DNA of 46,775 nt from Reinekea blandensis MED297. Lineage in GTDB: Bacteria > Pseudomonadota > Gammaproteobacteria > Pseudomonadales > Natronospirillaceae. The notes below the pieces were generated by a model. It saw only the letters and a list, made by a program, of their open reading frames with translations, did not search any database and was not told the origin of the DNA. Below are positions 21,152-41,630 of this stretch, piece by piece. Positions within the stretch are counted from its first letter, which is position 1, and each line of letters opens with the position of its first letter. The DNA is taken from positions 29,678 through 76,452 of the forward strand of contig NZ_CH724155.1 of the NCBI RefSeq assembly GCF_000153185.1. Direction: 5' to 3'. The position numbers and the translations under genes were made by a program.

Positions 21152-24100
21152 CTAGCCTTTAGCATCAAAGGATCTGGACGAACCCTCCGTTGACATCTGC
21201 TTCGACAACTCACGAATGTCTTTCTGAATCGCGGTCATCCGATCCAGATTTTTCAGATCGATATTGATCTTGCCATCCATGATTTTTGCCAGTGGCACCA
21301 GGCTGTTCTCAAAGGTATCGGCCAGCGTACTCAACAACTTGTCGATACCGGGAACGGGCTGATTGACCACCTGAACCGGTGGCGCTTCGAACCGAAGATT
21401 GCCGAGCGCCTGTTCTAACGAGGCCAATGAGGACTGTAACGTACTTGCCGTTTGATTCTGACCAGCTTGCTGCAATAACCCTCCGACCTGCTGAATGGCG
21501 CCAACCATATCCATCAGTTGCGATACGACTTTCTGACCGGTGTCGGCATCGTCTCCGCCCAACGCTTTGGCACGCCGAAAGTCCGCCAGGATTTCCTGCC
21601 AGCGCTGCTCGGCGCGTTCGTCTGCGGTGCCTCGTAACTGAGCCAGCTTCATCAGGTTTTCTTCAGTGCCCTGCGTCAGCAACTGCGCCTCACCCTGATA
21701 GTGATCGTCCACCAGCCGGACCAGTTCACTGTCGGTCATGACCGAACTGATTTTTTCCGCCATCTTGTTCATGTTGCGATAGCTGCCCTGCAACTTGAAG
21801 GGTGGCTCCGTTCGGTATTTGTCGGCCGTTGCCGCAGAGGCGATGTACGCCTGATTGACCTTCAGCACAATCGACTGGATCGTCTTCATGTGTTTCAGTA
21901 CCGCCAGGATTTCCTGCAGCTCAGCCGCGTTATAGGTGTGAGACAGCTCATTGCTGTTCACCTGTCCGCGTTGAGCCATGTCGACCAATTTGTACAGATC
22001 GGCCATCTCCCGTGTCGCCAAGGGCGCCAAGACCGAGTTAGACGTCAGGGAGTTTTCCAGATAGCTGAGCGCGAAGACGTCATCTTTACCCGAGAGCACA
22101 TCGCCGAGGTTATAGATGTCTGCCCGGTTCGCCAGCATGTCCGGAATCTGGAACAGCTCGCCACTTTCCGTGTACGGGTTACCCGCCATGACCACGCTGA
22201 ATTTTTTGCCGCGCATGTCGTAGGTTTTGCTTTGCCCTTGCCAAACGCCTTCAATGCGACGCGTACCGTCACACAGGGAAATGAACTTCTGCAAAAACTC
22301 CGGATGCGTGTGCTGAATATCATCAAGATACAGCATGACATTGCTGCCCATTTCCAACGCCAGGTTCAGCTTTTCCAGCTCCTGACGGGCCGCGCTGTGG
22401 GTCGCAGCCCCTGGATCAATCGACGTGATGTCATGGCCGATGGCCGGACAATTGATCTTCATGAACACCAGTCCAAGCCGGTTCGCCACGTACTCCATCA
22501 AGGTGGTTTTACCGTAGCCCGGAGGCGAGATCATCAGCAGCAAACCCATCAGGTCGGTACGTTTGCTGTCACCCACGGTACCCATCTGTTTCGCAAGGTT
22601 GTCACCAATCAACGGCAGGTAGACGTCGCTGATCAACTTGTTACGAACAAAAGATGACAACGGCTTGGCCTTGAACTGATCGAGCCGGAACTCTGAACGG
22701 TACTGTTCCACCAATCGGTTTCGAACGCTCTGCAAGCGCTGCCAGTCGGGCAAGACCCGGGTATGGTGGTCCTGAAGGCGCGCCAGAAAATCATCCAACA
22801 CCAGATCCAGCCCACCGTCGTTTAACCGCTTGTGCTGTCCGTATAGGGGTTCAACACGCATCAGCAGATCCGCCTCCAGATCCCTCAGACTCACCCGAGG
22901 TTCACACAGCAGTAAAGCCCCCGCTTCCATCACAAAGGGCCTCAGAGCAGCGGGGTCTTCCTGTTGGTTCACATAGGCAGACAGCCAGCGCTCGACATGC
23001 GCCCATCGTTGACCGATGGACATGTCAGTCTGTTCCAGAATCTGGTTAAACGACTCGAGCGCATTAGCCTGATCAAGGTGCGACTGAAACGCCGTCAATA
23101 ACTCGCGGGCGTATTTACTGATGGCAAACGCCAACGGCTCGCGCGACAGTTCGGTCAACAAATAGTCCGCGGCTACTGCCGCTTGTGCCGGCGTCAACGG
23201 GAGCTGCTCGGCATCAGCAAACGCCGTCAGCCTTTCCGTAACAGTTGTCTGCAATGCCTTCCAGGCGGCATGACTGTTCAACAGGGAACGTTGCGATGCC
23301 GCACTGCGGGCTTCCAGCGCCCAGTGGGCTTTCTCTGCCTGATGCACCGACCAGAACAAAACCGCCATGGCCCGAACCCGTCCTTCGAAACGGAAAACAT
23401 CGGCCGCCTGATAGGTTGGTATCAACTGACACAGAATGGCCGCTGCATCGTGATCGTGAATGCCTTTTTCATAGCCTTCGCGGTATCGGGTTGCGGCATA
23501 GGGGCGAACCAACGCCAACATGTCTTCAACATCGGTCGACGCCAGTGCCAAAGCATCCAGAGACAAAGCCTCGCGATCGTAACGTGCATCTTCCAACATC
23601 TGATACGCCAGATACTCGGCCCGATACACCTCGTCGGTTTCCGACGGCAGCGCCTGCTCCCAATAGGGCTTCAGGCTGTCCAGCTCGTCATCGTTCACCG
23701 GTTCGTAATAGTCGGTACCGGTCAAATGCAAGGTTTGCACACCATCGCGAACCAATAGCGTCAGATCCAGAGTCTGGGTGTTCACACTGAACTTGTGTTT
23801 GCCCAGTCGAATCACCTGACCGTCGCCTTCGTACAGGTCGGCCTGATCTCGCAACACCCGGATCGCCTGATCTTTCAGTCCTTTCAGGCGGGCATCCAGA
23901 TCGTCGGCCCGAACTACGTCGTCAAGCTCGCGCAACTCGGAAGACAGCCCACGGATTTTCTGCACCAACGCATCTGAGGCAAAGAAGGTGTTCAGCTGAT
24001 CAACATCGCGGAAACTGTTGCAGCGACGTTGAATGCTGCTGAGTATGCGCTCAGCCGCCGAGAACAGGTTTTGCGCCCGACGTTGCAGCGCGGACTGCAG

Positions 24101-26383
24101 TGATTGCTTATGGCTTTCAAACGCTTCGTAAATTTCTTCCCGTTTACTGATGATGTCAGTCAGGAACTGATCGTAGTCGCTGAACTGGCTTTCCAGCTCT
24201 TCGAGCTGAACCAGCAGACGCGCGAGCTGTTCATCGCATTTTTCCGGCGTGTTCGCCATGCCCAGCGCGTTGTTCACGCTCTGGCCCAGCAACTTAAACC
24301 GAGCACCAAACTGCGCGACCGCTTCACTGGACCCCATGCTGTTCTTCTGCTGTTCCAGCTTCGCTTTTTGCTGATTCAACTGACCGTATACACCGGAAAT
24401 CGATTCAACGATCTGCGTTTGTACCGTCGGATCCGTCACTTCTAAGGTCGCCACCAGTTCCGACAACAGATCCAGACTGTTCGATTGCGTTTCAAGTGTT
24501 TCCAGTAAGGGCGCCAGTTCTGCCACGGTCGTGCAGTCTTTGGCGTGTGACTGTACTTGAGTAATGTCATCCCGGTACGGCTCGAACGCATTATCCTGCG
24601 ACAGGAACGCGAGCGTTCGTTGGTTCAAATCACGTTCGAGCTCTGCTAACTCTCCGTCCAATGCATCGAGCCGCTCGGTTTGCATGTAGCGGTAGTCACG
24701 CAACGTCAGCAAATGACCGCGTTGCTCACGAATGGACTGCAACCCGTCAACAAAGGGTTGCGGGCTGTTCCAGGTATCCGGTTTTAAATCAAACTTCAGT
24801 TTTTCAAGTGCACGCTCTGCATCCTTCAGCGCCTGCTCGGACTGCTGCCGGATCGCGGTAACTTTCTCAAACTCATCCAACACCTGCTCGGAGGTTTCAC
24901 CGATCTGTCGGATGATTGGGGTCAGTGCTGCCAGCTCATCAGATTCCAGCCAGAAGTAGCTGTCGAAAAGCCCGGCACAGTGTTTTGAGAGTTGATTAAA
25001 GTGCTCCGCACTGACATCGGTTGTACGCACGGCTCGCACCACGCTGTACAGATCGGAGACGCCTCGAACGAGCTCCGCGTTGCCAATCCGACCAAAGAAG
25101 GTTGACGGTGCCGGTTGCTGACTGACGTATTCATCCGACTGATAAGGCGTTTTCCAGATCTGTAGCGGATGCACCCGCGTCGGTTCCGCCTCGGCGTAAA
25201 ACAGCGCCAGCCGACCGTCATCAAACAACCCGTAACCATGACCGAACAACGGGTTCTGCATGGTTTTGCTGATCAGGTTATAGCCGAACAGACCGACCTT
25301 CCCGGCTTCGGGTTCGTAAAACACATACAGAACGTCTTCACCATTCGGCGAGCGCACCACCCGCTTAAAGCGCATGCCTACCGTATCGTCATCGAAAGAC
25401 TTCAGATCGCCGGTACTGAGGTAATACCCGCCGGGAAACACGATGCCGTGATCTTCAGGTAACTGCACACAGGACTGACCGATGAGATCAATTCGCACCA
25501 CACGCTCGAGTGTTTTATTGAATACCAGATAACGGGTGGTCTCTTCCCGATACGGCAATATTCGCAGAAGAATCAGTTGGCCAAGATCCGCATAGGCCAG
25601 CTGGCAATCATCCAGTGTCTGGCTTTCCACCTCAACCGGTTCACTGTAAATACCCAGTCCGCTGTCGGTGTTGTTCTCAACCTTGATAGTCAAATCACCG
25701 CGCTGGCAGTCGACAAACAGTGTATCGAGTACGCTGTAATGCGGATGCCGGCCTTCGACGATGTCGTCGCGACCGCACTCGGTCCATTCAAAGTCAAACC
25801 GCGGCGGCAAGGCAATGTCCCGCTCGCCCCGATTGTCGATGTACTCGGTAACATTACCCTGCGCATCCAGAGACCAGCGAAACACGCGCTGATCACTTAA
25901 CCGGTCACCAATCTGAAACGCCGCCAACAGTTTATTGTCTTTCACCGTCAGCTGAATCAGGTGCGTCTGTTTGTAATAGGCGTAGAGTTCTTCAAACTCG
26001 GTCACGAAGCGCTGATCACTCAGGAAGGTACCGCTGAGGGCAACCTCTTCCACCTCAAACTGGCCGTCCCGTTCAACGGGTCGGAACAGTGCAAACACAT
26101 CGTTGACGCGTGTGGTTTTACGCAGCCCGATGTTGACGTTGTAACCCAGCAGAATCCACTCACCGACGCGAACCAGGTCGCGTGCAATGCTGTTGTTTTC
26201 CGTGCGCAGCCGAACGCGACCGGCCACTTCCATGTCAGTACTGCCGAACTCAGCCTGACGGGCATCATTGAGTTGTTGTGTCTGTTGCTCAAGCGCCCGG
26301 CCCTGTTCCATCAACCGGTTGTGCAGGACCTCGTAGGCTCCGCCTTGCGCGACGGCCTGATCGATGTCGTGAGAATCGCTCAT
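21152..26383 (-). CDS. Giant (1743 aa) protein with a C-terminal AAA_5 (MoxR/McrB/dynein-like) ATPase domain, function unknown
   Basis: One uninterrupted 5.2-kb ORF. Walker A ISPPGYGKTTLMEY near aa 1285, Walker B MLYLDDIQ, sensor-1-like VVMAGNP and the arginine-containing LANRADIY. The N-terminal 450 aa is a mixed beta-rich region. About 800 aa of predicted helical/coiled-coil sequence sits in the middle, and an about 300-aa helical tail follows the ATPase. Confidence 0.8.
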   Translation of the reverse strand: MSDSHDIDQAVAQGGAYEVLHNRLMEQGRALEQQTQQLNDARQAEFGSTDMEVAGRVRLRTENNSIARDLVRVGEWILLGYNVNIGLRKTTRVNDVFALFRPVERDGQFEVEEVALSGTFLSDQRFVTEFEELYAYYKQTHLIQLTVKDNKLLAAFQIGDRLSDQRVFRWSLDAQGNVTEYIDNRGERDIALPPRFDFEWTECGRDDIVEGRHPHYSVLDTLFVDCQRGDLTIKVENNTDSGLGIYSEPVEVESQTLDDCQLAYADLGQLILLRILPYREETTRYLVFNKTLERVVRIDLIGQSCVQLPEDHGIVFPGGYYLSTGDLKSFDDDTVGMRFKRVVRSPNGEDVLYVFYEPEAGKVGLFGYNLISKTMQNPLFGHGYGLFDDGRLALFYAEAEPTRVHPLQIWKTPYQSDEYVSQQPAPSTFFGRIGNAELVRGVSDLYSVVRAVRTTDVSAEHFNQLSKHCAGLFDSYFWLESDELAALTPIIRQIGETSEQVLDEFEKVTAIRQQSEQALKDAERALEKLKFDLKPDTWNSPQPFVDGLQSIREQRGHLLTLRDYRYMQTERLDALDGELAELERDLNQRTLAFLSQDNAFEPYRDDITQVQSHAKDCTTVAELAPLLETLETQSNSLDLLSELVATLEVTDPTVQTQIVESISGVYGQLNQQKAKLEQQKNSMGSSEAVAQFGARFKLLGQSVNNALGMANTPEKCDEQLARLLVQLEELESQFSDYDQFLTDIISKREEIYEAFESHKQSLQSALQRRAQNLFSAAERILSSIQRRCNSFRDVDQLNTFFASDALVQKIRGLSSELRELDDVVRADDLDARLKGLKDQAIRVLRDQADLYEGDGQVIRLGKHKFSVNTQTLDLTLLVRDGVQTLHLTGTDYYEPVNDDELDSLKPYWEQALPSETDEVYRAEYLAYQMLEDARYDREALSLDALALASTDVEDMLALVRPYAATRYREGYEKGIHDHDAAAILCQLIPTYQAADVFRFEGRVRAMAVLFWSVHQAEKAHWALEARSAASQRSLLNSHAAWKALQTTVTERLTAFADAEQLPLTPAQAAVAADYLLTELSREPLAFAISKYARELLTAFQSHLDQANALESFNQILEQTDMSIGQRWAHVERWLSAYVNQQEDPAALRPFVMEAGALLLCEPRVSLRDLEADLLMRVEPLYGQHKRLNDGGLDLVLDDFLARLQDHHTRVLPDWQRLQSVRNRLVEQYRSEFRLDQFKAKPLSSFVRNKLISDVYLPLIGDNLAKQMGTVGDSKRTDLMGLLLMISPPGYGKTTLMEYVANRLGLVFMKINCPAIGHDITSIDPGAATHSAARQELEKLNLALEMGSNVMLYLDDIQHTHPEFLQKFISLCDGTRRIEGVWQGQSKTYDMRGKKFSVVMAGNPYTESGELFQIPDMLANRADIYNLGDVLSGKDDVFALSYLENSLTSNSVLAPLATREMADLYKLVDMAQRGQVNSNELSHTYNAAELQEILAVLKHMKTIQSIVLKVNQAYIASAATADKYRTEPPFKLQGSYRNMNKMAEKISSVMTDSELVRLVDDHYQGEAQLLTQGTEENLMKLAQLRGTADERAEQRWQEILADFRRAKALGGDDADTGQKVVSQLMDMVGAIQQVGGLLQQAGQNQTASTLQSSLASLEQALGNLRFEAPPVQVVNQPVPGIDKLLSTLADTFENSLVPLAKIMDGKINIDLKNLDRMTAIQKDIRELSKQMSTEGSSRSFDAKG

Positions 26384-26490: not shown

Positions 26491-28482
26491 TTAGTTAACC
26501 TTGTCGGCTGGGGCTGGTGTCTTACCGGCCGTCATGAAACGCTGCATGATCTGTTGCAACATCGGACTTTCGGTTAACAGACCATCGATGGCTTTGCCCA
26601 TGCCCATGCCGGAGGCCATCTTGTTGAAGTAGTCGCCATCGCCACCGATGATATCGATGTTGGAGTTCTCGAAGGCCGAGGCCATGATGCTGGCCTGATC
26701 TTTGGAGATCTCTTTGTTGGCGTCCAGTTTCGCCTGAACTTCTGTCAGTGCGGCTTCAAGGCGCATCTTGAACTCTTCAAACTCACGCGCTTCGGTGCTC
26801 ATGTTGTTCATGGCATTGAACTTCGCCGTCAGACCATCGGCCTCGGCATTGGCACGCTCACGGATAACCGCTGAATCGGCCAGACCTTTTTCACGGCTCG
26901 CTTCGGCTTCCGCCAGGCCTTTCTGACGGCTGGCTTCTGCTTCCGCCAGACCCTGCTCACGCAGCCCGTTGGCTTCGGCATTGAGGCGCTCTTCCAGTAC
27001 TTTGGCCTGCATGAGCCCTTCTTTCTCGCGGGCAATGGCCTGGGCTTCGATGACACGCGCTTCGGCCTGACCTTCTTTCTCCAGCGCCTCGGCTTTCGCC
27101 GCCTGCACCTTGGCGGCCGCCAAACCAGAGGCCGCGTGCGTAGCCTGGTCGCCCTCGGCTTTCTTCTTTGCTGCTTCGGCTTGCTTGCTGGACGCTTCCA
27201 GTTCGGCCTGAGCCATCAGCTGAATTTCTTTGGCTTTGTGAACCGCCTGCTGTTCTTCGGCTTCGGCCGCTTTCACCTGCTTGATCTTTTCTTCTTCGGA
27301 GGTCGCTTCCGCTTCCATGATGCGAACCTGTTTCAGACGATCCGCCTCAGAAATTTCCCGCACCTCTTTAATGCGTTCTTCTTCTTCGGCGACCTTCTTC
27401 TCAACAGCGATGCGTTCAGACACGGTGTTGGCAATGATCTTACGCTCTTCTTCCAGGGCCTTTTCTTTGTCGATCCGTTGCAGTTCAACTTCACGTTCGC
27501 GGTTCACCGCTTCCAGTTCGCGCGCCTTAACGACCTTCTCTTCTTCGATCGCCAGGGCTCGTTCCTTGGCTTTATTGGCAATCTCAACCTGACGGTTTTT
27601 GTTGACATCCTGTACTGCAATTTCTTCTTCGGTACGGATGCGGGCTTCTTCCGACTTCAGTCGTTCTTCCTGCTGAACCTTCAGTGTTTCGGCTTCTTCC
27701 CGGGCTTTCAGCGTTTCCACTTCGCGCTTCTGACGGGCCACCGCATCGGCTTCCTGGCGTTCCAGTGCCAATAGGGCTTCACGCGTTTCAACATTCTTCT
27801 TGTTGATCGCCAGCGCCTGATCTTTTTCCAGACGGTTCGTCTCAATGCTTTGTGTGGCCGTCACTTCCGTGATGCGACGGATACCCTCCGAATCGAGAAT
27901 GTTGAACGGGTCGAGTTCTGACTTTGGTGTCTGTTCCAGGTAATCGATGGCAACGTCTTCGAGGACATAGCCGTTCAGATCCTGCCCGATCACTTCGATG
28001 ATCTGTTCACGGAACTGAATCCGGTTTTCGAACAGTTCCAGGAAGTTCATTTTTTTACCGACGGTCTTCAATGCTTCAGAGAACTTGGCATTGAACAGCT
28101 CGTTAACGGCTTCGCGATCAGACGCTCGATCTACGCCGATGGCCTTCGCCACCTTGAGCACGTCGTCCTGGGTTTCATTGACGCGCAAATAGAAAGCCAC
28201 GTTGATATCGGCCCGCAGATTATCTTTACAGATCAACCCGTCCTTGGCCCGCCGATCCAGCTCCAGGGTGATCAGCGAGATCTTCATGACTTCCATTTTG
28301 TGAACAACCGGCAACACAAACCCACCGGTGAAAAACACCTTCGGTTTGGCGGACATGTCGTTCACGATCATCGCATAACCCTGCGGGATCTTTTTATAGA
28401 ACGCATTAAACAGCAGGGCTAAAAACAGCAGTACGCCGAAGATAACACCGCCCCAGATTAAGATGGGCATGATCAGTTCCAT
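26491..28482 (-). CDS. Flotillin-like SPFH/Band-7 protein (YqiK-like) with an extended Glu/Ala/Lys-rich coiled coil
   Basis: N-terminal TM (ILIWGGVIFGVLLFLALLF), an SPFH domain, then about 350 aa of EA-rich coiled coil with internal 11-aa repeats (GLAEAEASRQKGLAEAEASREKGLAD). AAGGAG RBS 8 nt upstream. Confidence 0.85.
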   Translation of the reverse strand: MELIMPILIWGGVIFGVLLFLALLFNAFYKKIPQGYAMIVNDMSAKPKVFFTGGFVLPVVHKMEVMKISLITLELDRRAKDGLICKDNLRADINVAFYLRVNETQDDVLKVAKAIGVDRASDREAVNELFNAKFSEALKTVGKKMNFLELFENRIQFREQIIEVIGQDLNGYVLEDVAIDYLEQTPKSELDPFNILDSEGIRRITEVTATQSIETNRLEKDQALAINKKNVETREALLALERQEADAVARQKREVETLKAREEAETLKVQQEERLKSEEARIRTEEEIAVQDVNKNRQVEIANKAKERALAIEEEKVVKARELEAVNREREVELQRIDKEKALEEERKIIANTVSERIAVEKKVAEEEERIKEVREISEADRLKQVRIMEAEATSEEEKIKQVKAAEAEEQQAVHKAKEIQLMAQAELEASSKQAEAAKKKAEGDQATHAASGLAAAKVQAAKAEALEKEGQAEARVIEAQAIAREKEGLMQAKVLEERLNAEANGLREQGLAEAEASRQKGLAEAEASREKGLADSAVIRERANAEADGLTAKFNAMNNMSTEAREFEEFKMRLEAALTEVQAKLDANKEISKDQASIMASAFENSNIDIIGGDGDYFNKMASGMGMGKAIDGLLTESPMLQQIMQRFMTAGKTPAPADKVN
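26881..26979 (-). repeat. 3 x 33-bp imperfect in-frame tandem repeat inside the flotillin coiled-coil region
   Basis: Units cagacctttttcacggctcgcttcggcttccgc, caggcctttctgacggctggcttctgcttccgc and cagaccctgctcacgcagcccgttggcttcggc. They encode LAEAEASRxKG repeats. Confidence 0.6.
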
Positions 28483-28530: not shown

Positions 28531-29157
28531 TTAGTGTGTTTGTGCGAGCTGAAAACAGCCCTGCTCGGGAATGAATCGCACGATGGTGACCTCATCACCG
28601 GATTTATAACCGAGGTGCGCCGGTGCCCGAACCTGAATGATCAGACTGGCGCCTTCGTAGTTAAAATGGGCCTCGCCGAAGGTTTCATCGACGCGGCTTG
28701 AACGGATGGTGCAGTTTTTTCCAATGGCATAGCGACCAAGAACCTGTCGTTGTGCTTTGCCGAAGAGTTTGCGTAAGGGACGGATGGTGATCGCGGTGCA
28801 GGGAATGGCCACCACAAACGCCCCTAGCGAAATGACGGTACCAATCAGCCAACTCATCAGCCCCGCCTCGGACGGCATCACCAGGTAAGCGGCAAAGTAA
28901 CTGGCTAACCAGGCGTAAAGCGCCAGCAACGTCAGGATCACCGGAACCGGGACGCCTGTCAGACCAAAGGTTGAGAGCCAGCCGGCAACACCGGGCAGCT
29001 CCGCATCGGCATCGACATCGAGGTCGACATCCACGCCCGGTATGTCAAAGTCGGCCATGCCAAGCATGGCGATGACCAGGAACAGCAGGCAGATGAGTAA
29101 AGCCGTGGTCCAGATCGCCGTCGGGAACGACAGGCTGATGTGTAAAAAAGTGTCCAT
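28531..29157 (-). CDS. YqiJ/NfeD-like membrane protein (flotillin partner, C-terminal OB-fold)
   Basis: Multi-TM N-terminal half and a C-terminal soluble beta domain, the same architecture as E. coli YqiJ. Immediately upstream of the flotillin gene, as in the yqiJK pair. Confidence 0.7.
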   Translation of the reverse strand: MDTFLHISLSFPTAIWTTALLICLLFLVIAMLGMADFDIPGVDVDLDVDADAELPGVAGWLSTFGLTGVPVPVILTLLALYAWLASYFAAYLVMPSEAGLMSWLIGTVISLGAFVVAIPCTAITIRPLRKLFGKAQRQVLGRYAIGKNCTIRSSRVDETFGEAHFNYEGASLIIQVRAPAHLGYKSGDEVTIVRFIPEQGCFQLAQTH

Positions 29158-29158
29158 G

Positions 29159-29488
29159 TTACTCCTCAGCAGACGAGGTTTGACTCCATTGCAGCAACTC
29201 CTGCGCTGCGCGTTCTTTAATCGCTAAGTGATCCGCCGGATCAATGCCATAGCGTTCTGCCAGCAAAGCCATTTCATCGGCGGACAGGCTGATGGTCAGA
29301 CGCGGCCGAACCGGTTTTTTCACCGGTAACCCGAGAATACTGCGAATCTGATCCGACGGTGTGCGATCGGCTTTAATCGCTGATGTCTTGATCCGGCGCT
29401 GTGCGTCGGTCGAGATATCAAAGGCGATCTGCACCGCTTTTATCGCGCGTCGTTCGTCCGGCCAGTAGTCCTCGGGTTGCTTTGCCAT
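29159..29488 (-). CDS. Hypothetical protein
   Basis: 109-aa ORF tightly packed (2-bp gap) before the YqiJ-like gene. No recognised domain. Confidence 0.4.
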   Translation of the reverse strand: MAKQPEDYWPDERRAIKAVQIAFDISTDAQRRIKTSAIKADRTPSDQIRSILGLPVKKPVRPRLTISLSADEMALLAERYGIDPADHLAIKERAAQELLQWSQTSSAEE

Positions 29489-29495
29489 GGCGGCC

Positions 29496-29735
29496 TCAGG
29501 CGTTATTCAGATAAGACTGCAGTTCGGTAATCTTACGGCCCAGTTCGGCGTCGATTTCTTCCGGGCGGACCCGATCCAGAATGTTGCCGAGAACGCGTCG
29601 TTCGTTGTCATCAATCTCACCATCACGCAGGGCAATGTTGATCAGTTCGTCAAACTCAGCGGCGTCCAGTTTACCGTCGTCGGTAAACGCCTGAATGGAG
29701 CGAAACGACAGTTCCAGATAATCACGGTTTTCCAT
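29496..29735 (-). CDS. Hypothetical small protein, TerB-like motifs
   Basis: 79 aa, acidic, with two xDGxxDxxExxxL-type motifs (TDDGKLDAAEFDELI and RDGEIDDNERRVL) reminiscent of the TerB/DjlA-N family. Confidence 0.4.
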   Translation of the reverse strand: MENRDYLELSFRSIQAFTDDGKLDAAEFDELINIALRDGEIDDNERRVLGNILDRVRPEEIDAELGRKITELQSYLNNA

Positions 29736-30426
29736 GGTTGGTTTCCTTTTTCAGTTGGGCCAGTATGGCGTCCGGACTGTCGTCATCCCAGACGATGCCG
29801 GCTTGTTGGTATTGCAGTTTGGTGTCCTGTGACTGCTGCAGGTCGGTCTCGGCCTGCCATTGATCCTGAGCGCGCTGCTGCCGTGCGCGTATGCGCTCGA
29901 CTGAGGCGCGTGCATTGGTCAGTGATTCGGTCCCCTCGGCCAGATGATCACGCAAAGCGAGAGTGGTCTGATGCATGGTTTGGCTGGTCGTCAGCATGTC
30001 TCGTTCCCGGAGCAGTTCGCCGAGATCGCTCTGCGCGCGATTCAACTGATAACGGGCACGGGCGGTCTGCGCGGAAACTTCACTCAACTCTGTTTGCAGC
30101 GATTGCATTTGGTGACGACATTCTGATATCTGCTGCGCATGTACCGCCGCCTGAGTTTCCTGACCGGCCTGCAGAGCCGAACGGGCCTGTGTTTGCAAGT
30201 GCTGCTGTTCACGTTCCAACTTGTCGAGTCGTTGTACCAGGCTCTGTTCGGTCGACTCCATGGTTCGAAACGCGGTTTCCGCCTGCGACAGAATCGATTG
30301 AGATCGGGCAATGGAAGCTTCCAGTCGGTGATCCTGTTGCTGATCGACCGTCTCGGGGACATCTCCAACCGCGCTCGATATTTCGACAACGCTGCGTTTT
30401 AACAGTGAGATCAGTTTACTGAGCAT
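29722..30426 (-). CDS. PspA/IM30 (ESCRT-III-like) family protein, YjfJ-like paralog
   Basis: Predicted all-helical coiled coil of the IM30 size class. N-terminus MLSKLISLLKRSVVEISSAV parallels the PspA MGIFSR..I.. amphipathic start. GAGGAGG RBS 8 nt upstream of the chosen ATG. It follows a YjfI-like gene as in the E. coli yjfIJ pair. Confidence 0.65.
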   Translation of the reverse strand: MLSKLISLLKRSVVEISSAVGDVPETVDQQQDHRLEASIARSQSILSQAETAFRTMESTEQSLVQRLDKLEREQQHLQTQARSALQAGQETQAAVHAQQISECRHQMQSLQTELSEVSAQTARARYQLNRAQSDLGELLRERDMLTTSQTMHQTTLALRDHLAEGTESLTNARASVERIRARQQRAQDQWQAETDLQQSQDTKLQYQQAGIVWDDDSPDAILAQLKKETNHGKP

Positions 30427-30439
30427 GGGTCCGTCCTCC

Positions 30440-30847
30440 TCAGCGCAGATAGGGTTCAAAAGCCAGTAATGCCTGTTGAGCATTTTCAGCCAGCGTTACC
30501 AGTTCGGTTGCAATCAGATGGGTATCGGAATCCAAGGCCAGGGCTCCGAAAGCGACGTAATAGTTTTCAACCAGCGCAAACGCACTTAATGGCATCGGCA
30601 CGTTCAGTTCAAGCAGCAGAGCGTTCAGTTGGGTTTCGCGGTCATCACGAATCTCAGCGCGATGTGCCAGGTAGGCAATGCATAAAATCTGGGTATCGGT
30701 ATGGGTGACAAAGATCGGAGGGTCATTCAAATGCTCCACTTCCACCCGCAGGACCGAATGATCGCCCTGAATCGGCATGCAATGGAAACGATGTCCCTCA
30801 AACTGACTGCTGTCGAGGAATGCGTTGAGCTGTTGCAATCGGGTCAT
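30440..30847 (-). CDS. YjfI-like protein (DUF2170)
   Basis: The C-terminal VENYYVAFGALALDSDTHLIATELVTLAENAQQALLAFE closely parallels the E. coli YjfI C-terminus (EEYYIVFGALSLKSSLEDILLEITSLVDNALDLAEI). Start chosen at MTRLQ with GGGAGG 5 nt upstream. Its stop overlaps the RBS of the next gene. Confidence 0.65.
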   Translation of the reverse strand: MTRLQQLNAFLDSSQFEGHRFHCMPIQGDHSVLRVEVEHLNDPPIFVTHTDTQILCIAYLAHRAEIRDDRETQLNALLLELNVPMPLSAFALVENYYVAFGALALDSDTHLIATELVTLAENAQQALLAFEPYLR

Positions 30848-30874
30848 GCCGCCTCCCTGGCTGAGCATCAGATA

Positions 30875-30953
30875 TTGACATAATATGTCGGTCATCCTGA
30901 CCGAGCGGGACATATTATGTCAAACAGTTACGAACGAAAGTGACTTTTGTCAC
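30875..30953. promoter_or_regulatory. Cluster of perfect palindromes in the divergent promoter region: a 15-bp inverted repeat with a nested 5-bp IR, plus a second 5-bp IR
   Basis: TTGACATAATATGTC (30875-30889) and GACATATTATGTCAA (30909-30923) are exact reverse complements. The 19-bp spacer contains GGTCAtccTGACC. GTGACttttGTCAC follows at 30940-30953. The arm also reads as a -35-like TTGACA fused to TAATAT. Confidence 0.55.
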
Positions 30954-33900
30954 AGCTTTTGAGTGTGTGGTTTCCATTTGGCGCAACCACCAGAAAGCCG
31001 TTAAGATCTGCCCTCCATGCTTCCAAGGATCGGGCCGTGTCCACTTCCGCCATTGCTGATGTCATCCGCTACTACCGGGATTGCTTCCAGGCGTCGTTTT
31101 TCTCTTCCGCCGGGTACGGCTTATTTGATCAGAAAGATCTGGTGCCTTTGGCCATTGCGCACCTGGATGACGGCATTCCCTGGTCGGAGCAATGGCAGCA
31201 GCAATATGTGATCGATGCCGATCAGGTCCATCTGATGCGCATCGACGGCATCACCTTGATTCCGGAACCCAACAGCGCAGCCACGACCGATGCCCACTAT
31301 CGCCCGTCCCGCGTCGCGCAGATGAACGCCTGGGCCGATAACCCCCAGGCCGAGCCGGACTGGGACGAGGAGTGGCAACAACAGTTACAGGCCGATACCG
31401 AACCGGCCCCTCAATTAACGGTGGCCTCACTGCCGAGCCTGTCGAACCTGGCCGACTGGTTGCAAGAGCAGGCCGAGCAATCCACGGAACGCCGGCAACT
31501 GGCCGTCAGTGTGTTGTTTTTGATGCCCAAAAACTTTCGTGCGACCGCGCACAAAGCCGATTTCGTTGCCTATCTCGACCGGCTGACCCACCAGCATCAC
31601 AACCCCGACAGTCTGCTGTGGCAAAGTCTGCTGCGACAGTCTGTTATGCCGGTTACGACCACACCGACGCCCGAACTGCCCTTTTTATCTCAGCGCCAGA
31701 ACCAGGCGTTGCACAGCGCCCGTACGCGTCGGTTTTCGCTGATCCAGGGTCCGCCCGGGACCGGCAAAAGCCGGCTACTCGCCACGTTGGCGGCGCAACT
31801 GGCCAGTGACAACAAAGCCGTCTTGCTGACCAGCCACAGCGACCATGCCCTGACCGTACTGCGGGAAAAACTGGTGCAGGATATCGGTCTTGATGAGCGC
31901 TGGCTGGTTCATATCGGACCGGGACGTCGGACCCGAAAGCTGGCCGAACACCTGTCGCGGCTACTGACCCGAAGTGACGAACCTGCGGCGCCCACTCGCG
32001 CGATGCCCGGCGCGTGGGCGGACTTCCATCGCAGCGAGACACGCCTGCGCCGGCAACTGGCTCGTGAACCCCAACTGACAGAGAACTGGCTAACCGGCGA
32101 GCTGACCGGTTCGCAATCATTGAAACGCCGATGGTGGTCACTGTGGCACCGCGACCATCATCACCTCAACCGCACCATCGATACCCTGCATGCCTCGGTC
32201 GATCAACTCGCCCGAGCGTTCGGTGCCGATCTTAACCGACAACTGCACCAGGCTTTTCAGTTTTCGCGGACTAAGAACAGTGACGCCTGGTCCACCTTGG
32301 CACAGCGCCTGAAACGCGGCAGTCTTCGCGAAAGCGTTGGCCATCTGAATCAGCGCCGGGACGATGTGTTTACACCCACCGATGGGCTGAAAATCTGGTT
32401 AATCAAACTGGATGATCTGCCCGAACAGGCTTTTGGCCTGTTCGACACCGTCATCATCGACGAAGCGACGCAGGTCAATATGGCGGAAGCCATTCCGGCA
32501 CTGGCGCTGAGCCGTCATGCCGTGGTGGCCGGCGACCCCCGACAACTTCGACATTACAGCTTTTTGAGCCGCGAACAGGAGGCCCGCATTGCCGGCAGCC
32601 TGAATCTGAACCCGGACGATGTCGTCAGCTTCCGCGACACCAGCCTGCTCGACTACAGCGAACAGTACCTGACAGGTATTTCAGCCTTTGATGCCTGCCA
32701 CCAGCTCGACGAACACTATCGTTCCGTGCCGCCATTGATGGATTTCAACAGCCGACAGTTTTATCAGGGCGATGTCCAGGTGCTGACCGGGCTGAATCAG
32801 GTCAACAGTCTCAAGCTGCACCTGAACTGGGTGATGACCGAAGGACAACGGGTTAACAAAATCAATCAGGCTGAGGCTTCCGTGCTTATCGAGCATCTGA
32901 CGCAGCTGATCAACCGCGAACGGAACCAACCGGTTAGCAAAAAAACGACTCTCGGGGTGCTTTCATTTTTCCGCGATCAGACGGAGCACCTGAAACAACA
33001 GATTCTGCAAACCTGTTCACTCAGTGACATTCGCGCGCATCAGGTTAAGGTGGGTACGCCCTTTTCGTTTCAGGGTGAAGAGCGCGACCACATGCTGATT
33101 TCCTGTGCTATCGACGATCACAGCCACCCCGGCACCTGGGGGTATCTGAATCAACCGGATGTATTCAATGTGGCGACATCCCGTGCCAGACGCCAACAGA
33201 CGCTGTTTCTGTCGGCCAGTCCAGCCGAACTGCCGGTTAACTCGGTGCTACGCAGCTATTACGATTTCAGCCGCACACCACCAACCTCGGCAACCGCACC
33301 GGAACAGAGCCTGCCCTGGTTACGACACCTGTTACCCGCACTTCAGGACGCGGGCTTCCGTACCCTGGCACAGCAATACATCGCCGACATCCCCATCGAT
33401 TTGATTCTGGAAGCCGATGGCCGGACGCTGGCTGTCGACCTGATCGGTTTTCCTTCCGAGGTCGGTCAGGCGATTCATCTGGACCGTTACCTGGCCCTGT
33501 TCCGCGCGGGTATTCCCTTGTTTCCGTTCAGTGCCCGGGAATGGGTCTTAAACCCCAATGGTTTGATCGAAGACCTGCTTCGCTGGGCCGGACAATACGA
33601 TCATCGACTATCGATGGAGTCCCCCAAGGAAACAACACCCGGCTCTGACTTCATTCCTGCCAAACTCTGGCAAGGGCTTTCTCGATGCCAGCAAAGTCCG
33701 GACGTGCAACAGGAGTTCACCGATGCTGAGTTGCAACTCACTGACCAGATTCACCGGCTTGAAACCCTGTTGAGCAGCCTCTTTCAACCCGGCTCAGTGA
33801 CGTATCTACGATATCAATCGGCTATTACCTCAGTGGCAGGTCAGACACTGGAAAACCTGGAAACCTACCGGTTGCTGTTCAGTCAGGTCTGGGAACAGGG

Positions 33901-34084
33901 CAGTCAGGATCATGCTTACTGGAATGGCTTGGTAGCCCCCATTAAACAACGGCATTTGGATTACCTGTCGGCGCTGCAGCGGTTGCAAACCTCGTTGACC
34001 GAAACCATCGCTCAGCAGAAGCCCGATACCTTTCAGCTTAACGATCTGGAAGCCTTAACGGAGCGGCTGAAGCATTATCAGTAA
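30947..34084 (+). CDS. Superfamily-1 helicase, Upf1/DNA2/NAM7-like (AAA_11/AAA_12)
   Basis: Walker A LIQGPPGTGKSRLLATL, Walker B VIIDEATQV, motifs VVAGDPRQL and FNVATSRAR. About 300 aa N-terminal and about 330 aa C-terminal regions are unassigned. The ORF-track start is a TTG at 30947 with a poor RBS. The in-frame GTG at 31037 preceded by AAGGA (7-nt spacing) is a plausible true start. Confidence 0.8.
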   Translation: MSQLLSVWFPFGATTRKPLRSALHASKDRAVSTSAIADVIRYYRDCFQASFFSSAGYGLFDQKDLVPLAIAHLDDGIPWSEQWQQQYVIDADQVHLMRIDGITLIPEPNSAATTDAHYRPSRVAQMNAWADNPQAEPDWDEEWQQQLQADTEPAPQLTVASLPSLSNLADWLQEQAEQSTERRQLAVSVLFLMPKNFRATAHKADFVAYLDRLTHQHHNPDSLLWQSLLRQSVMPVTTTPTPELPFLSQRQNQALHSARTRRFSLIQGPPGTGKSRLLATLAAQLASDNKAVLLTSHSDHALTVLREKLVQDIGLDERWLVHIGPGRRTRKLAEHLSRLLTRSDEPAAPTRAMPGAWADFHRSETRLRRQLAREPQLTENWLTGELTGSQSLKRRWWSLWHRDHHHLNRTIDTLHASVDQLARAFGADLNRQLHQAFQFSRTKNSDAWSTLAQRLKRGSLRESVGHLNQRRDDVFTPTDGLKIWLIKLDDLPEQAFGLFDTVIIDEATQVNMAEAIPALALSRHAVVAGDPRQLRHYSFLSREQEARIAGSLNLNPDDVVSFRDTSLLDYSEQYLTGISAFDACHQLDEHYRSVPPLMDFNSRQFYQGDVQVLTGLNQVNSLKLHLNWVMTEGQRVNKINQAEASVLIEHLTQLINRERNQPVSKKTTLGVLSFFRDQTEHLKQQILQTCSLSDIRAHQVKVGTPFSFQGEERDHMLISCAIDDHSHPGTWGYLNQPDVFNVATSRARRQQTLFLSASPAELPVNSVLRSYYDFSRTPPTSATAPEQSLPWLRHLLPALQDAGFRTLAQQYIADIPIDLILEADGRTLAVDLIGFPSEVGQAIHLDRYLALFRAGIPLFPFSAREWVLNPNGLIEDLLRWAGQYDHRLSMESPKETTPGSDFIPAKLWQGLSRCQQSPDVQQEFTDAELQLTDQIHRLETLLSSLFQPGSVTYLRYQSAITSVAGQTLENLETYRLLFSQVWEQGSQDHAYWNGLVAPIKQRHLDYLSALQRLQTSLTETIAQQKPDTFQLNDLEALTERLKHYQ

Positions 34085-34821
34085 GGCATGTTATAACGTT
34101 TAAGAATGGTTTCCTGTTCGGGTCGCACACGATCCAGCGCGGCCTGGAAGGCGTTGACGACGTCCTCCGAGACACCAAAACTGAAGGCATAATGCCCACG
34201 GGTTTCCCGTGTGGTAGCCAACAGGCGCAAGGCAAACCCCTGTTCATCCGCCAGCTTTACCAAGGTCCGATAGGGCGCTTCTGACAGCGAAAACAGGCGG
34301 CTACGTTGCCGGCTTACCAGGGTAAACAGCGTTTCCGGCGAATCCACGAGATCGAGCTTTTCAGGGGGGTAGCCCAGTTCTTCCATGGCGTACTGGCTGA
34401 TGTCCGATTGAATCGCCACCACCCGTTCGGTGTGATCAACTCGGGGGTTATAGCTTTCGATACCGCTGCCCACGAAAGTGAACAGGAAACTGTAGGAAGA
34501 ATGCGTGTGGCCCACCCATTGAAACAGCGGCTCACGCGCCGGGGTCCGCGACATGGTGAACAGCATGACCGGGCGCTCGGATTGTGCCAGATGATAGCCT
34601 CGCGCCCAGGGCATCACGTCGATGTCGGGAAACTCAACGCCCAGCTCGTCGTAAACCAGCTGAAGAATTTCCACAGACAAACCCGTCAGTTCGCCGTCCT
34701 GAAAGTAGTTCAGCGGCGGGTAATCTTCGGTTATGACCTGCAGATTGCGGATCTGGGCCGTTAAATCATTTGCTGTCGCCACACTGAAAAGCAGCAGGCT
34801 CCAGACGACCAATTGCCTCAA
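34078..34821 (-). CDS. Periplasmic solute-binding protein (ABC-type, family 3-like), orphan
   Basis: Signal peptide MRQLVVWSLLLFSVATA. Length and pattern fit type-2 periplasmic binding proteins. No adjacent permease or ATPase genes. Confidence 0.55.
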   Translation of the reverse strand: MRQLVVWSLLLFSVATANDLTAQIRNLQVITEDYPPLNYFQDGELTGLSVEILQLVYDELGVEFPDIDVMPWARGYHLAQSERPVMLFTMSRTPAREPLFQWVGHTHSSYSFLFTFVGSGIESYNPRVDHTERVVAIQSDISQYAMEELGYPPEKLDLVDSPETLFTLVSRQRSRLFSLSEAPYRTLVKLADEQGFALRLLATTRETRGHYAFSFGVSEDVVNAFQAALDRVRPEQETILKRYNMPY

Positions 34822-35163: not shown

Positions 35164-37347
35164 TTAAGACCGGGCGCTCGGATCGGCATTAAAGGAACTG
35201 GCAGGCTGGAAACGGAACAGTTTCGCCAACACAACATCCGGCAGTTTTTCGATTTGCGTGTTGTAGAGTTCTACCGAGTCGTTGTACCCCTGACGGATCA
35301 AAGCAAGCTCGTCCTCGGATCGGGTCATCTGATCACGGAACGTCTTTACCAGTGAGTTGGCTTTCAAATCCGGGTAATCTTCAACGCGCGCGATAAAGGC
35401 ATCCACCACCTTATTTTCGAAAGCCAGCTGTTTTTCTGCCTGGTCCGGGTTTTCCGAATAACTGGATTGACCATTACGCAGTTTCACCATGGCGGCCATC
35501 AGCTTTTTCTCATGTGCCATATACCCCTGCACCGTCGTCAGCAATCTTGGCCACAGGTCATGACGTTTCTGCAACAGAGTGTCGATGTCGGCCCGGGTTT
35601 TATCGACTCGGTTCTTCAAGAACACCAACCCGTTGTAATGCAGGATGGCGGTAATCAATAACAGCAGCAACGGCACAATCAACGACACTTTGATCAGGTC
35701 CAGAGGCGTTAACAGGCCACTGCCGCTGAGTAACACGGTCCCCGCCATCAGGCTGAAGCCAAGAGCCAACCCGGTGAGCATGAAACCACTGGCGCCCCGG
35801 CCTTTCACGACCTCGTCTTCTTCCTGAGTGGTGATCAGGTACTCGAAATCTTCGCTTTTCTGAATGCTGAGCCGGTCGGCATCGGCATCGGCGATGCCGG
35901 CAAAGCCAAGACAGTAAACGTTGCGGAAAGGGGGTAACCAATATTCGGTGTAGCGCTTACGGCCCTGCCGATCGACATTTTTTTCAGGGTACACAATGTT
36001 GGCACCGGCCGGGTTTACCGCGACCTGACCCATCTCATCTTCAAGCCAGAACTCCGTCTGCGCTTCCCCTTCATCCAATGTCACCCACTTCGCGTTTTTG
36101 CCGCTGCCACGCCGCTCTTCAACGCAATAACGATAGGCCACACATTTGGCGCTGTTCAGCTGACTGGTCAGAAAGGGTTTACGGTCATCGACATTGATCA
36201 TGCCAAACAACTCGGCAATGCCATACGCCAGTCCCGTTGTTTGAGACGTCGGGACAAACTCCACCAGCCGCTTAAAGCGAATCGCTTTCAGCGCCAGCCA
36301 GATCAGCACCGCCGTACCCAAGGTTCCGCCGGCCGCCAGCACATAAACCACCCACTGCTGAGAATATTGACTGCCCGAGGTGTCCTGCAATCGGCTTTCG
36401 ATGCGCTGCTGTTCATTGGTCGACAAGGCGGGTGGTCGAAACGATTCATTTTCAGCCATACGGAACAACAGGCTGTCCGGCCATTGCGAAGCACTGCGTT
36501 TAATCAACGCATACATCGCATAGAGGTCTTCAATGGCCGCCGGTTCCCGGCTGGCTAATGCGCCTTCGGATCGTTCCTGATAGAGCGCCGCCGCATCTTG
36601 CCAATCTTTCTGCAGGTGAATCAGCCCAATACTCCACAGGGCAGCCAACAGTCCCAGCGTCATCACGACGACAAAAACCCAGTAACGATGAACGCCAAAC
36701 ACCACCAATGCCGCCGCCAGTCCGACTGCCAGTAATCCGGTCGCCGCGGAGATCAGCAGACCCGATACAAAGAGGGTGTTGCCACCTTCGGTCTGCAAGG
36801 TTTGATAGGTCACAATGGTTTCCAGTTCCGCCGGCATTCTCGACAACTCAAACGCCTCACGTTGATAGTCATACCAGGCCATCATCTGAATCATATCGCC
36901 GGGGCGAATCGAATGTTCGGTATAAATCCGGTCGCCGGATTTGCGCCGATACGTCTGCCGGGCATGCCATTCGATATCCCCAATGGCTCGGCCGGGGTTA
37001 ATCTGACGTTCGCTCAGGCTGTCCTCTAACAAAAAGGTTGTGGCGCTCTCGCCGGAATCCAGTGTCCGGGTTTTCCGGTTGCCTTCAGAGTCGGTGTATT
37101 CTTCTTCCAGTTTGTAATGGAAGTACACCACCCGGTCTTTGGCATAGGGAGTGGTGATCAGGGCGTTCTGTTCAGCCACCCGACCTTCAATGGCGTACAC
37201 ACCTTGCGTGACAGCATCCAGTGAGGACAACGGCAACCGGTCGAGCTGTCGAACATCCGATAACTGGGCAAAACCCCAGCGAAAGCAAAATAATGAGGCA
37301 ATGATCAGAACCACACTGAGCACTGCAAAGCCGAGTCGTTTCCACAT
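35164..37347 (-). CDS. LemA-family protein fused to a large duplicated N-terminal membrane domain
   Basis: The C-terminal 190 aa is a LemA domain (TM + NRVDKTRADIDTLLQKRHDLWPRL...YNDSVELYNTQIEKLPDVVLAKLF). The N-terminal 520 aa contains two similar modules. Each is a TM followed by an about 200-aa domain and two further TMs, resembling GIDE/DUF-type membrane domains. Start chosen at MWKRL with AAGGAA upstream. Confidence 0.6.
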   Translation of the reverse strand: MWKRLGFAVLSVVLIIASLFCFRWGFAQLSDVRQLDRLPLSSLDAVTQGVYAIEGRVAEQNALITTPYAKDRVVYFHYKLEEEYTDSEGNRKTRTLDSGESATTFLLEDSLSERQINPGRAIGDIEWHARQTYRRKSGDRIYTEHSIRPGDMIQMMAWYDYQREAFELSRMPAELETIVTYQTLQTEGGNTLFVSGLLISAATGLLAVGLAAALVVFGVHRYWVFVVVMTLGLLAALWSIGLIHLQKDWQDAAALYQERSEGALASREPAAIEDLYAMYALIKRSASQWPDSLLFRMAENESFRPPALSTNEQQRIESRLQDTSGSQYSQQWVVYVLAAGGTLGTAVLIWLALKAIRFKRLVEFVPTSQTTGLAYGIAELFGMINVDDRKPFLTSQLNSAKCVAYRYCVEERRGSGKNAKWVTLDEGEAQTEFWLEDEMGQVAVNPAGANIVYPEKNVDRQGRKRYTEYWLPPFRNVYCLGFAGIADADADRLSIQKSEDFEYLITTQEEDEVVKGRGASGFMLTGLALGFSLMAGTVLLSGSGLLTPLDLIKVSLIVPLLLLLITAILHYNGLVFLKNRVDKTRADIDTLLQKRHDLWPRLLTTVQGYMAHEKKLMAAMVKLRNGQSSYSENPDQAEKQLAFENKVVDAFIARVEDYPDLKANSLVKTFRDQMTRSEDELALIRQGYNDSVELYNTQIEKLPDVVLAKLFRFQPASSFNADPSARS

Positions 37348-37564
37348 TGTTTTTCGTTCCTTCTGGTCAATCGGCCATGGGAAGGGCATGATCTTGCACG
37401 CGGACGGTAACCGTCCAGTGCCAAAAGCCGTAAACCGGTCAGGACCTTTCCTCTGAGTCCTGATTGCCGGGGCCTGATAACACTAATTCAACCCTACCGG
37501 TCTGGCGCGGATTCATTACACTACGCCATCACGACCCAGTTCAACCGGCAAAGAAGGAAATCTC

Positions 37565-41138: not shown

Positions 41139-41630
41139 TCAATCCTGTATTTTTGAAAACTCGCGATCCAGCTCAAACCGCTTGGATGTCACGTAACGCT
41201 CCATACGTCCGACGCGATCCACGACTTCGTTCATTCGCTCCTTGGCGGTGTCCAGTCGATCGCTGGCACTGCCCTGATAACGAAACATATTGACTGGTCG
41301 ATCCTGGTGCAGGTTTTCATCATAACGATAACGCTGATGAATCACCGAGCCTTTCGGCCGAGGTGCCATGGCAAACCAAGCGCCAATGTAGGCCCACACC
41401 ATCAACATGTTAAAGAAGAAAAAACCGCCAACGGTAATCAGGCGCACGACCCAAGGCTCAACATTAAAGTGATCGGCCAGGCCAGCACAGACACCGGCCA
41501 CCTTTTTGTCTCGCGTATTGCGATAAAGGTTCATACCAAACCCTTGTCGGCGGCGTTCCCACCAGTCTTCCGGTGAGTAGGGATCCGGTCGGTGCCGGCG
41601 CGCACGTCGATCCTGTTTTGAGTAACTCAT
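41139..41630 (-). CDS. pspC: Phage shock protein C
   Basis: PspC domain (LYRNTRDKKVAGVCAGLADHFNVEPWVVRLI) followed by a TM. Confidence 0.8.
   Translation of the reverse strand: MSYSKQDRRARRHRPDPYSPEDWWERRRQGFGMNLYRNTRDKKVAGVCAGLADHFNVEPWVVRLITVGGFFFFNMLMVWAYIGAWFAMAPRPKGSVIHQRYRYDENLHQDRPVNMFRYQGSASDRLDTAKERMNEVVDRVGRMERYVTSKRFELDREFSKIQD

Follow-up and report, generated by a model that had tools for sequence, protein, structure and literature searches.

An Upf1-like helicase of Reinekea blandensis encoded beside a PspA-flotillin-DUF3686 operon and carrying a tail related to a TelA-adjacent protein

The current study examined a stretch of 46,775 nucleotides (nt) from the gammaproteobacterium Reinekea blandensis MED297 (assembly GCF_000153185.1, contig NZ_CH724155.1, positions 29,678 to 76,452), hereafter referred to as the window, with a focus on a helicase gene at 31037..34084 (+) that starts with GTG and encodes 1015 amino acids (aa) plus a stop codon. 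By Pfam, motifs, and fold, the protein is an Upf1-like SF1B helicase, and its gene stands head to head with a PspA-flotillin-DUF3686 operon, a co-location that is real and recurrent, if not general. Judged from profile comparisons, its C-terminal tail shares homology with the cytoplasmic domain found in an unnamed family of proteins with two transmembrane (TM) helices, which is encoded beside TelA. From these observations we infer a functional coupling of the helicase and the envelope-stress operon. It is possible, if somewhat short of probable, that a motor from a generally autonomous family became an accessory of envelope-stress machinery in some Gammaproteobacteria. Residue numbers are counted from GTG 31037 unless marked as TTG numbering.

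The motor (31688..33211, +; residues ~218-725) comprises two RecA-like domains with a long helical insertion at residues ~300-440. The protein has motifs I, II, III, V, and VI, none of which varies across the family; they read GPPGTGKS (residues 238-245, nt 31748-31771), DEATQ (residues 475-479, nt 32459-32473), GDPRQL (residues 499-504, nt 32531-32548), FQGEERD as motif V (residues 678-684), and VATSRAR (residues 712-718, nt 33170-33190). The Pfam families AAA_11 (75.0 bits, 1e-20) and AAA_12 (76.3 bits, 3.1e-21) both match above the gathering cut-off of 27. An AlphaFold2 model based on a 34-sequence alignment reached a mean predicted local distance difference test score (pLDDT) of 82.6 and a predicted template modeling score (pTM) of 0.75, and a Foldseek search with it retrieved UPF1, SETX/Sen1, IGHMBP2, Aquarius, and DNA2 (E values of 4e-21 to 1e-13) as well as ZNFX1 and nsp13; the top solved-structure match of the motor is UPF1 (4e-21), and DNA2 was found at 1.5e-14. 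The four motifs other than motif V had been read in a first-pass annotation of this DNA, which proposed an AAA_11/AAA_12-type core, and the Pfam scores and Upf1-like Foldseek cores agree with it. Its estimates of about 300 aa ahead of the core and about 330 aa behind it were too large, the actual values being 217 aa (247 if counted from TTG) and ~290 aa. An active SF1B motor is expected since all catalytic motifs are intact, and it is predicted to be driven by ATP in the 5'->3' direction on single-stranded RNA or DNA. Compared with the eukaryotic Upf1, Sen1/SETX, IGHMBP2, and DNA2 helicases, the protein has neither a CH domain nor a DNA2-type N-terminal nuclease, the insertions in RecA1 are exclusively helical, and identity amounts to 13-18%. 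Membership in the DNA2 group was rejected, as the N-terminal domain appears DUF4011-like and an N-terminal PD-(D/E)xK nuclease is absent.

Both flanks of the core had been left blank in the first-pass annotation. Two of the three formerly blank regions can now be referred to known domain types and the third to a new TelA-adjacent protein family. The N-terminal domain (31037..31681, +; residues 1-215) appears to be a divergent DUF4011-like alpha/beta domain, based on a profile-profile comparison with DUF4011 (probability of 97.2%). PF13195 is matched weakly by 15 of 79 relatives; the domain of the window itself has no Pfam match, no solved fold relative, and no structural match to any nuclease. 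Behind the motor follows a Vsr/DUF559/MTES_1575-type endonuclease-fold domain (33245..33601, +; residues ~737-855) with a derived motif, whose relationship to the C-terminal domains of helicases bearing PF18741 or PF04480 was indicated by hhalign (98.4%, E = 8.7e-15). The reference MTES_1575/DUF559 domains of related helicases have the motif D...IE.DG..H; in its place, all 85 of 85 family members have D...IDL(I/V)G(Y/F)PG, which reads IDLIGFP in the window, with substitutions at the second acidic position and at the His of IE.DG..H. Among the same 85 members, D788, R823, and W836 are conserved to 100% and D801 to 98%. The sequence pattern suggests a conserved domain that is probably non-canonical and possibly non-catalytic, and which in Reinekea would more likely bind nucleic acid than cut it.

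The C-terminal tail (33644..34081, +; residues ~870-1015), consisting of three to four long helices, is confined to the 15 members of the helicase family designated "long forms." A search of 1.84 billion representative proteins with a profile built from 11 tails (E <=1e-3) returned 223 matches, which comprised the long-form helicases together with many stand-alone proteins of ~200-290 aa. Five of the stand-alone homologs were inspected: hydrophobic N-terminal stretches, taken by eye as two predicted TM helices, precede a helical domain. An alignment of 80 stand-alone members contains the motifs F.P.ELTY.RY, NE.AL..LD, and EL..LA.R...Y, and the helical domain is shared with the tail of the window, where it is fused to the C terminus of the helicase and devoid of TM helices. 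In the reciprocal direction, a hidden Markov model (HMM) of the 80 stand-alone proteins matched every long-form tail in the loci and nothing else (window, 4.8e-11), and hhalign gave a probability of 99.7% (E = 1.6e-25) for the tail and the stand-alone family. No Pfam, NCBIfam, or PDB relative of the latter was found, and a scan of the 80 members gave no recurrent match. Three further relationships, namely of the tail as a TelA-like domain, of the tail to PspA, and of TelA to PspA, were tried and rejected, each with an hhalign probability of 0.1%.

The stand-alone gene lies directly upstream of TelA, with a gap of 5-22 nt, in three of the four contexts examined, i.e., on plasmid pSEA2 of Vibrio alfacsensis (L172, 5683-7613), on plasmid pIFO15642 of V. 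penaeicida (L173, 5683-7612), and on a metagenome contig (L175, 4772-6814) with Band_7+SHOCT, DUF4178, and DUF350 genes alongside. In the fourth context, an SBP+VWA gene takes the place of TelA, which is itself annotated as a "toxic anion resistance protein." On the Vibrio plasmids, VWA and SBP/OmpA genes are located upstream of the gene for the ~260-aa 2-TM protein. A small membrane protein gene directly upstream of telA is likewise found in the xpaC-telA pair, an envelope-stress cluster of Firmicutes (PMC6811118, PMC12791056). This resemblance is positional only, because the tail homologs lack a recurrent Pfam or NCBIfam match and XpaC is not among the 25 most frequent Pfam families listed for the 80 stand-alone proteins.

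The divergent operon on the - strand was already seen, as a head-to-head flotillin/AAA operon, in the first-pass annotation; it is real, and seven genes could be identified, in the order DUF2170, PspA/IM30, a 79-aa open reading frame (ORF), a 109-aa ORF, a 208-aa membrane protein, a flotillin-like protein, and DUF3686+AAA. The first gene (30440..30847, -; Pfam DUF2170, 5.6e-30) encodes a YjfI/BacA-like protein of the CesT/Tir type and the second (29722..30426, -; Pfam PspA_IM30, 6.7e-13) a PspA/IM30-family protein with orthologs of 232-234 aa. Three small genes (28531..29735, -), for the 79-aa, 109-aa, and 208-aa proteins, are conserved in the related loci L001 and L002. They are followed by the genes for the 663-aa flotillin-like protein (26491..28482, -), with a weak match to NCBIfam FloT (5.2e-09), and for a giant AAA+ ATPase of 1743 aa (21152..26383, -), with DUF3686 (Pfam, 2.9e-191), DUF7902, AAA_5, and AAA matches. 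The probable start of DUF2170 is ATG 30847 rather than 30913, given orthologs of 135 aa and GGGAGG upstream. The longest ORFs of DUF2170 (30440-30913) and PspA (29722-30483) look over-extended; the lengths of the orthologs and sites resembling ribosome-binding sites favor ATG 30847 and ATG 30426, respectively. The acidic 79-aa protein (29496-29735, -) has repeated DG..D..E-type motifs and was found by tblastn in 20 of 80 DUF3686 operons; it may resemble TerB-like domains. By its position, the 208-aa protein would be the YqiJ/YuaF-type three-transmembrane (3TM) protein of a previously described operon. A 132-aa multi-TM ORF (20609-21007, -) follows DUF3686 where Pseudomonas-type operons have a rhomboid gene, and it shows no similarity to the Pseudomonas-type rhomboid. 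None of the 79-, 109-, 208-, and 132-aa proteins has a Pfam match.

An operon combining CesT/Tir (DUF2170)-PspA with a band-7/flotillin protein, a novel AAA+ protein, and a 3TM protein was described by Ravi et al. 2024 (PMC11237479), and it is this operon that neighbors the helicase of the window. The authors report a PLD in some operons of Proteobacteria and never mention the helicase (PMC11237479). Together with the bac cluster of P. aeruginosa (PMC10948618), it represents the nearest known system. Compared with it, the helicase is an occasional add-on, found in 9 of 80 loci after the PLD and additionally in the divergent layout of Reinekea.

The main source for the helicase family was a survey of one genome per GTDB species, which returned 80 loci. 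Most of the proteins comprise 890-940 aa with the N-terminal domain, the motor, and the Vsr-like domain without the tail, and the hosts are Gammaproteobacteria, Bacteroidota, Planctomycetota, Verrucomicrobiota, and others. A clustering of the flanking ORFs yielded only DUF3686-operon, PspA, TelA, and rhomboid/PLD modules. Adjacency to the operon was observed in L001, L002, L003, L021, L027, L031, L038, L068, L069, and L084. The divergent layout is kept in the window, L001, and L002, and orthologs with identities of 69% and 47% retain the adjacency regardless of differences in the other flank; since the other flank of L002 is unrelated, the operon side is the conserved one. A different arrangement, DUF3686-rhomboid-PLD-helicase, is present in six genome loci of the Pseudomonas group (L003, L027, L031, L038, L068, and L069), e.g., as 3TM-flotillin-79aa-DUF3686-rhomboid-PLD-helicase in P. 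mangrovi, and the stop of the PLD gene overlaps the start of the helicase gene in L003. The helicase also follows a PLD at DUF3686 in 9 metagenome loci. Motilimonas has the order DUF3686-PLD-helicase, and in a Kangiellaceae genome the helicase is located 2.8 kb from the operon. In Microbulbifer echini, a DUF2170-PspA-channel-DUF2491-DUF350-DUF1190-GSP_synth (yjfIJKLMC-type) operon lies ~1 kb downstream of the helicase, and in Endozoicomonas a rhomboid gene begins 5 nt after it. With respect to the tail-bearing helicases, TelA adjoins 6 of 15, either downstream (L004, L006, and L091, overlapping in the last) or upstream (L015, L016, and L024), and the PspA operon adjoins 3 of 15. The co-location noticed in the first-pass annotation is thus beyond chance, being kept in orthologs and recurring in Pseudomonas, Motilimonas, and Kangiellaceae. 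Because a crude neighbor-joining tree places the long forms on other branches than the PLD-linked short forms, at least two recruitments are likely, and the compared loci indicate that the placement beside envelope-stress genes arose several times within Gammaproteobacteria, in different arrangements.

Seen from the operon side, a sample of 80 DUF3686 metagenome loci contained the flotillin-like gene in 74 cases and the 3TM gene in 65; a PLD follows DUF3686 in 29 and a rhomboid gene in 25, often ahead of the PLD. In the DUF3686 loci L104, L107, and L111-L161, a Nuc-type PLD follows far more often (29/80) than the helicase (9/80).

Overall, the Reinekea helicase would act as the accessory nucleic-acid arm of a PspA/flotillin/DUF3686 membrane-stress system. 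Its tail would dock the enzyme onto, or subject it to, a membrane-associated helical stress protein. TelA would fill this part in the TelA-linked relatives, and one of the products of the operon (e.g., PspA, DUF2170, or the 79-aa protein) in Reinekea. The motor would thus be recruited or released once the envelope is damaged, for instance by phage or membrane-active agents, and the adjacent PLD nuclease would supply cleavage in Pseudomonas-type operons. The most specific form of this proposal is that the tail docks an Upf1-like motor at the damaged envelope, on TelA or on a PspA/DUF2170/flotillin scaffold, together with the PLD in Pseudomonas-type operons and possibly against invading nucleic acid; we regard this form as speculative and, taken by itself, doubtful. 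No earlier description of envelope damage being relayed to nucleic-acid processing was found for bacteria.

Several findings weigh against a coupling of the helicase and envelope stress. About 68 of the 80 genome loci have no recurrent neighbor, only 7 of 80 have the operon, the most frequent flanking Pfam family accounts for 2 of 138 flanking genes, and many of the latter look like housekeeping genes. Co-occurrence had been proposed as a check in the first-pass annotation, and the broad occurrence without the operon counts against the link drawn there; an established housekeeping role of the helicase was not found. In two full-length, tail-bearing homologs, L010 of Reinekea sp. G2M2-21 (40% identity) and L090 (39% identity), the operon and TelA are both absent within 10 kb, and in the DUF3686 sample the helicase is present in 9 of 80 loci, always after the PLD. 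Linked loci from one genus are moreover non-independent observations. Neither TelA nor a PLD was detected in the window by tblastn or HMM. The weakest step is a Reinekea partner other than an adjacent TelA, and a contact between the tail and PspA is a guess because TelA and PspA are not detectably homologous. The conserved operator palindromes described below probably belong to the operon and not to the helicase, as the Kangiellaceae locus L021 has them without an abutting helicase.

The helicase might instead be a stand-alone nucleic-acid maintenance enzyme, e.g., for the quality control of RNA or the repair of DNA, that is functionally independent of the operon; the synteny would be inherited within Reinekea and due to chance or hitch-hiking elsewhere. 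Given that most members of the family are encoded alone, with varied neighbors that often look like housekeeping genes, such a role is quite possible, and we rate it as somewhat unlikely for the protein of the window. It would be in agreement with a crude tree that roughly tracks taxonomy, with the whole architecture being retained in L010 and L090 without the operon, and with the transcription of the helicase divergently from the operon. The GC content of the gene (57.4%) is near that of the window (54.0%) and hence gives no sign of recent transfer, as would also be anticipated for a resident maintenance gene. However, within one bacterial class the gene came to lie beside envelope-stress genes in at least five or six distinct ways, which is difficult to reconcile with chance, and the synteny of L002 persists on the operon side only. 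Moreover, the tail is homologous to a TelA-adjacent protein, and tail-bearing helicases adjoin TelA.

A dedicated anti-phage protein of the Hhe, Mokosh, or PDC-S37 kind, for which the operon would provide the sensor or the membrane component of abortive infection, is improbable, and a dedicated defense role is less well supported by the genomic context. The best PADLOC/NCBIfam matches are indeed the defense models MkoA, MkoC, PDC-S37, Hhe, ProA, and PLuB, and the first-pass annotation had described this type of core as common in defense systems and RNA/DNA surveillance. These matches cover the motor only, PDC-S37 also including part of the Vsr-like domain, and are far below the curated cut-offs (69.5 bits versus 2000 for Hhe NF042953 and 91.8 versus 1500 for ProA); for this reason the protein was not filed under Hhe, Mokosh, or DNA2. 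The order of a probably DUF4011-type N-terminal domain, an AAA_11/AAA_12 motor, and a Vsr/DUF559-fold C-terminal domain is the same as in Hhe. In contrast to Hhe, the Reinekea helicase is half as large (1015 aa versus models of ~1800-1900 positions), its nuclease motif lacks the second acidic residue and the His, it has an extra tail related to the TelA-neighbor protein, and a defense-island context is missing. Since NF042953 scores far below its cut-off of 2000, the PADLOC Hhe model (PDLC02194) matches only residues 499-682 (TTG numbering), and the catalytic motif is altered, membership in Hhe was rejected.

Mokosh systems, which consist of the helicase MkoA and the PLD protein MkoB or of the fused MkoC, have an Upf1-like motor as well and resemble the eukaryotic MOV10L1/Zucchini pair. 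In the Pseudomonas and Motilimonas relatives, the helicase gene directly follows a Nuc-type PLD gene, to which it is adjacent or translationally coupled, and this pairing in Pseudomonas-type operons resembles Mokosh type I; a PLD is also found beside the helicase relative of Cryomorpha, and the Pseudomonas-type PLD weakly matches the DrmC, MkoC, MkoB, and DpdK models. Only positions 616-1069 of 1112 of the MkoA model are matched, leaving 1-615 unmatched, and only 667-937 of 1136 of MkoC. Neither the N-terminal domain nor the tail of the Reinekea protein is related to the Mokosh models, and a PLD is missing from the window; membership in Mokosh was rejected as only the helicase core is matched. 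A WYL regulator adjoins L010, encoded by a convergent helix-turn-helix (HTH) + WYL gene (13184-13921, -), and regulators of this type are often linked to DNA-damage or defense helicases. Against a dedicated defense function stand, apart from the degenerate nuclease motif, the neighbors of the family, which include AAA_21 or AAA_15 ATPases in only 3 of 138 cases, none of them recurrent, and no defense islands. No feature of the window suggests a mobile island.

The helicase and the operon share a control region of ~190 bp between GTG 31037 and the DUF2170 start ATG 30847, which would allow coordinated expression. It contains the palindrome pair TGACATAATATGTC / GACATATTATGTCA at 30875-30889 and 30909-30923 (unstranded), the copies being 19 nt apart and their 15-nt arms 100% complementary; two matches occur in the window, compared to 0.01 expected. 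The 14-15-nt palindrome TGACATAATATGTC(A) is invariant in two copies in the window, in L001 (9842-9888), and in L002 (9852-9897), and in the Kangiellaceae locus L021 (14953-14995) one exact and one near copy are located upstream of a pspA-like gene. The paired palindromes are probably the operator of the divergent PspA operon for some regulator, with TGACATAATATGTCA as the candidate regulator-binding palindrome. Another palindrome, AGTGA-CTTTTG-TCACA (30939..30954, unstranded), is likewise conserved between the window and the loci L001 and L002; it reads TGTGA-N6-TCACA in L002, and the consensus of the three operon-adjacent loci is (A/T)GTGA-N6-TCACA. It is a candidate CRP site, the version of L002 being that of the Escherichia coli CRP consensus; a comparable site was not seen upstream of the operon-less homologs L010 and L090. 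A consensus scan of 30780-31120 retrieved no sigma-70 promoter, and TTGGCG-18 nt-TAAGAT may be considered a promoter candidate, with 8 of 12 consensus positions matched.

These palindromes also bear on the start codon of the helicase gene. The ORF 30947-34084 (+) of the first-pass annotation is present and comprises 1045 aa when counted from its first TTG. That annotation had regarded the TTG as the annotated start lacking a ribosome-binding site and proposed an in-frame GTG at 31037 with AAGGA; the ribosome-binding site is indeed missing at the TTG, which is merely the earliest possible start of the longest ORF, whereas the NCBI model P0001 ("DEAD/DEAH box helicase," Reinekea blandensis; 1015 aa, 100% identical) begins at the GTG. 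The Shine-Dalgarno-like AAGGA is located at 31025..31029 (+), read from the sequence with a 7-nt spacer to GTG 31037, and AGGAA is found at the aligned position in L001. Orthologs with 82, 69, 61, and 47% identity all start at the position equivalent to GTG 31037, with M-x-TSAIxDVIRYY. When the intergenic DNA of the window is aligned with that of L001 and L002, TTG 30947 faces a CTG (L001) and a TAG (L002), and it falls within the conserved palindrome 30939-30954. Since the orthologs and the NCBI model begin at GTG 31037, the TTG is not conserved, and a palindrome spans it, the GTG is almost certainly the true start. The 30 codons on its 5' side (30947..31036, +), with conserved palindromes and an otherwise divergent sequence, would be noncoding promoter/operator DNA; with these 90 nt being regulatory, the protein is therefore one of 1015 aa, which favors the NCBI gene model over the longer ORF. 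A protein extended by 30 residues through initiation at TTG 30947, as might be concluded from the position of this codon at the head of the longest ORF, is extremely improbable in view of the missing ribosome-binding site, the CTG and TAG equivalents, the conserved palindromes in 30947-31036, and the uniform start of the orthologs and the NCBI model.

At its other end, the stop of the helicase gene shares 7 nt (34078-34084) with the 3' end of a convergent SBP_bac_3 gene (34078-34821, -), and no terminator-like site is present between the two genes. Further genes of the envelope-stress type near the helicase include one for a 741-aa GIDE + LemA protein (35164-37389, -) and an ORF (41139-41630, -) with 43% identity to the PspC-domain gene of L001.

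To our knowledge, PspA, flotillin, and TelA systems are regarded purely as membrane-repair or membrane-organizing machinery. If the proposed coupling is true, envelope-stress responses would gain an unrecognized output that acts on RNA or DNA, based on a recurrently recruited nucleic-acid motor carrying a domain borrowed from a TelA-adjacent protein. It would also open a first route to the functions of the giant DUF3686 ATPase operon and TelA, of the PLD of about one third of the DUF3686 operons, and of a widespread, unstudied family of ~900-aa helicases.

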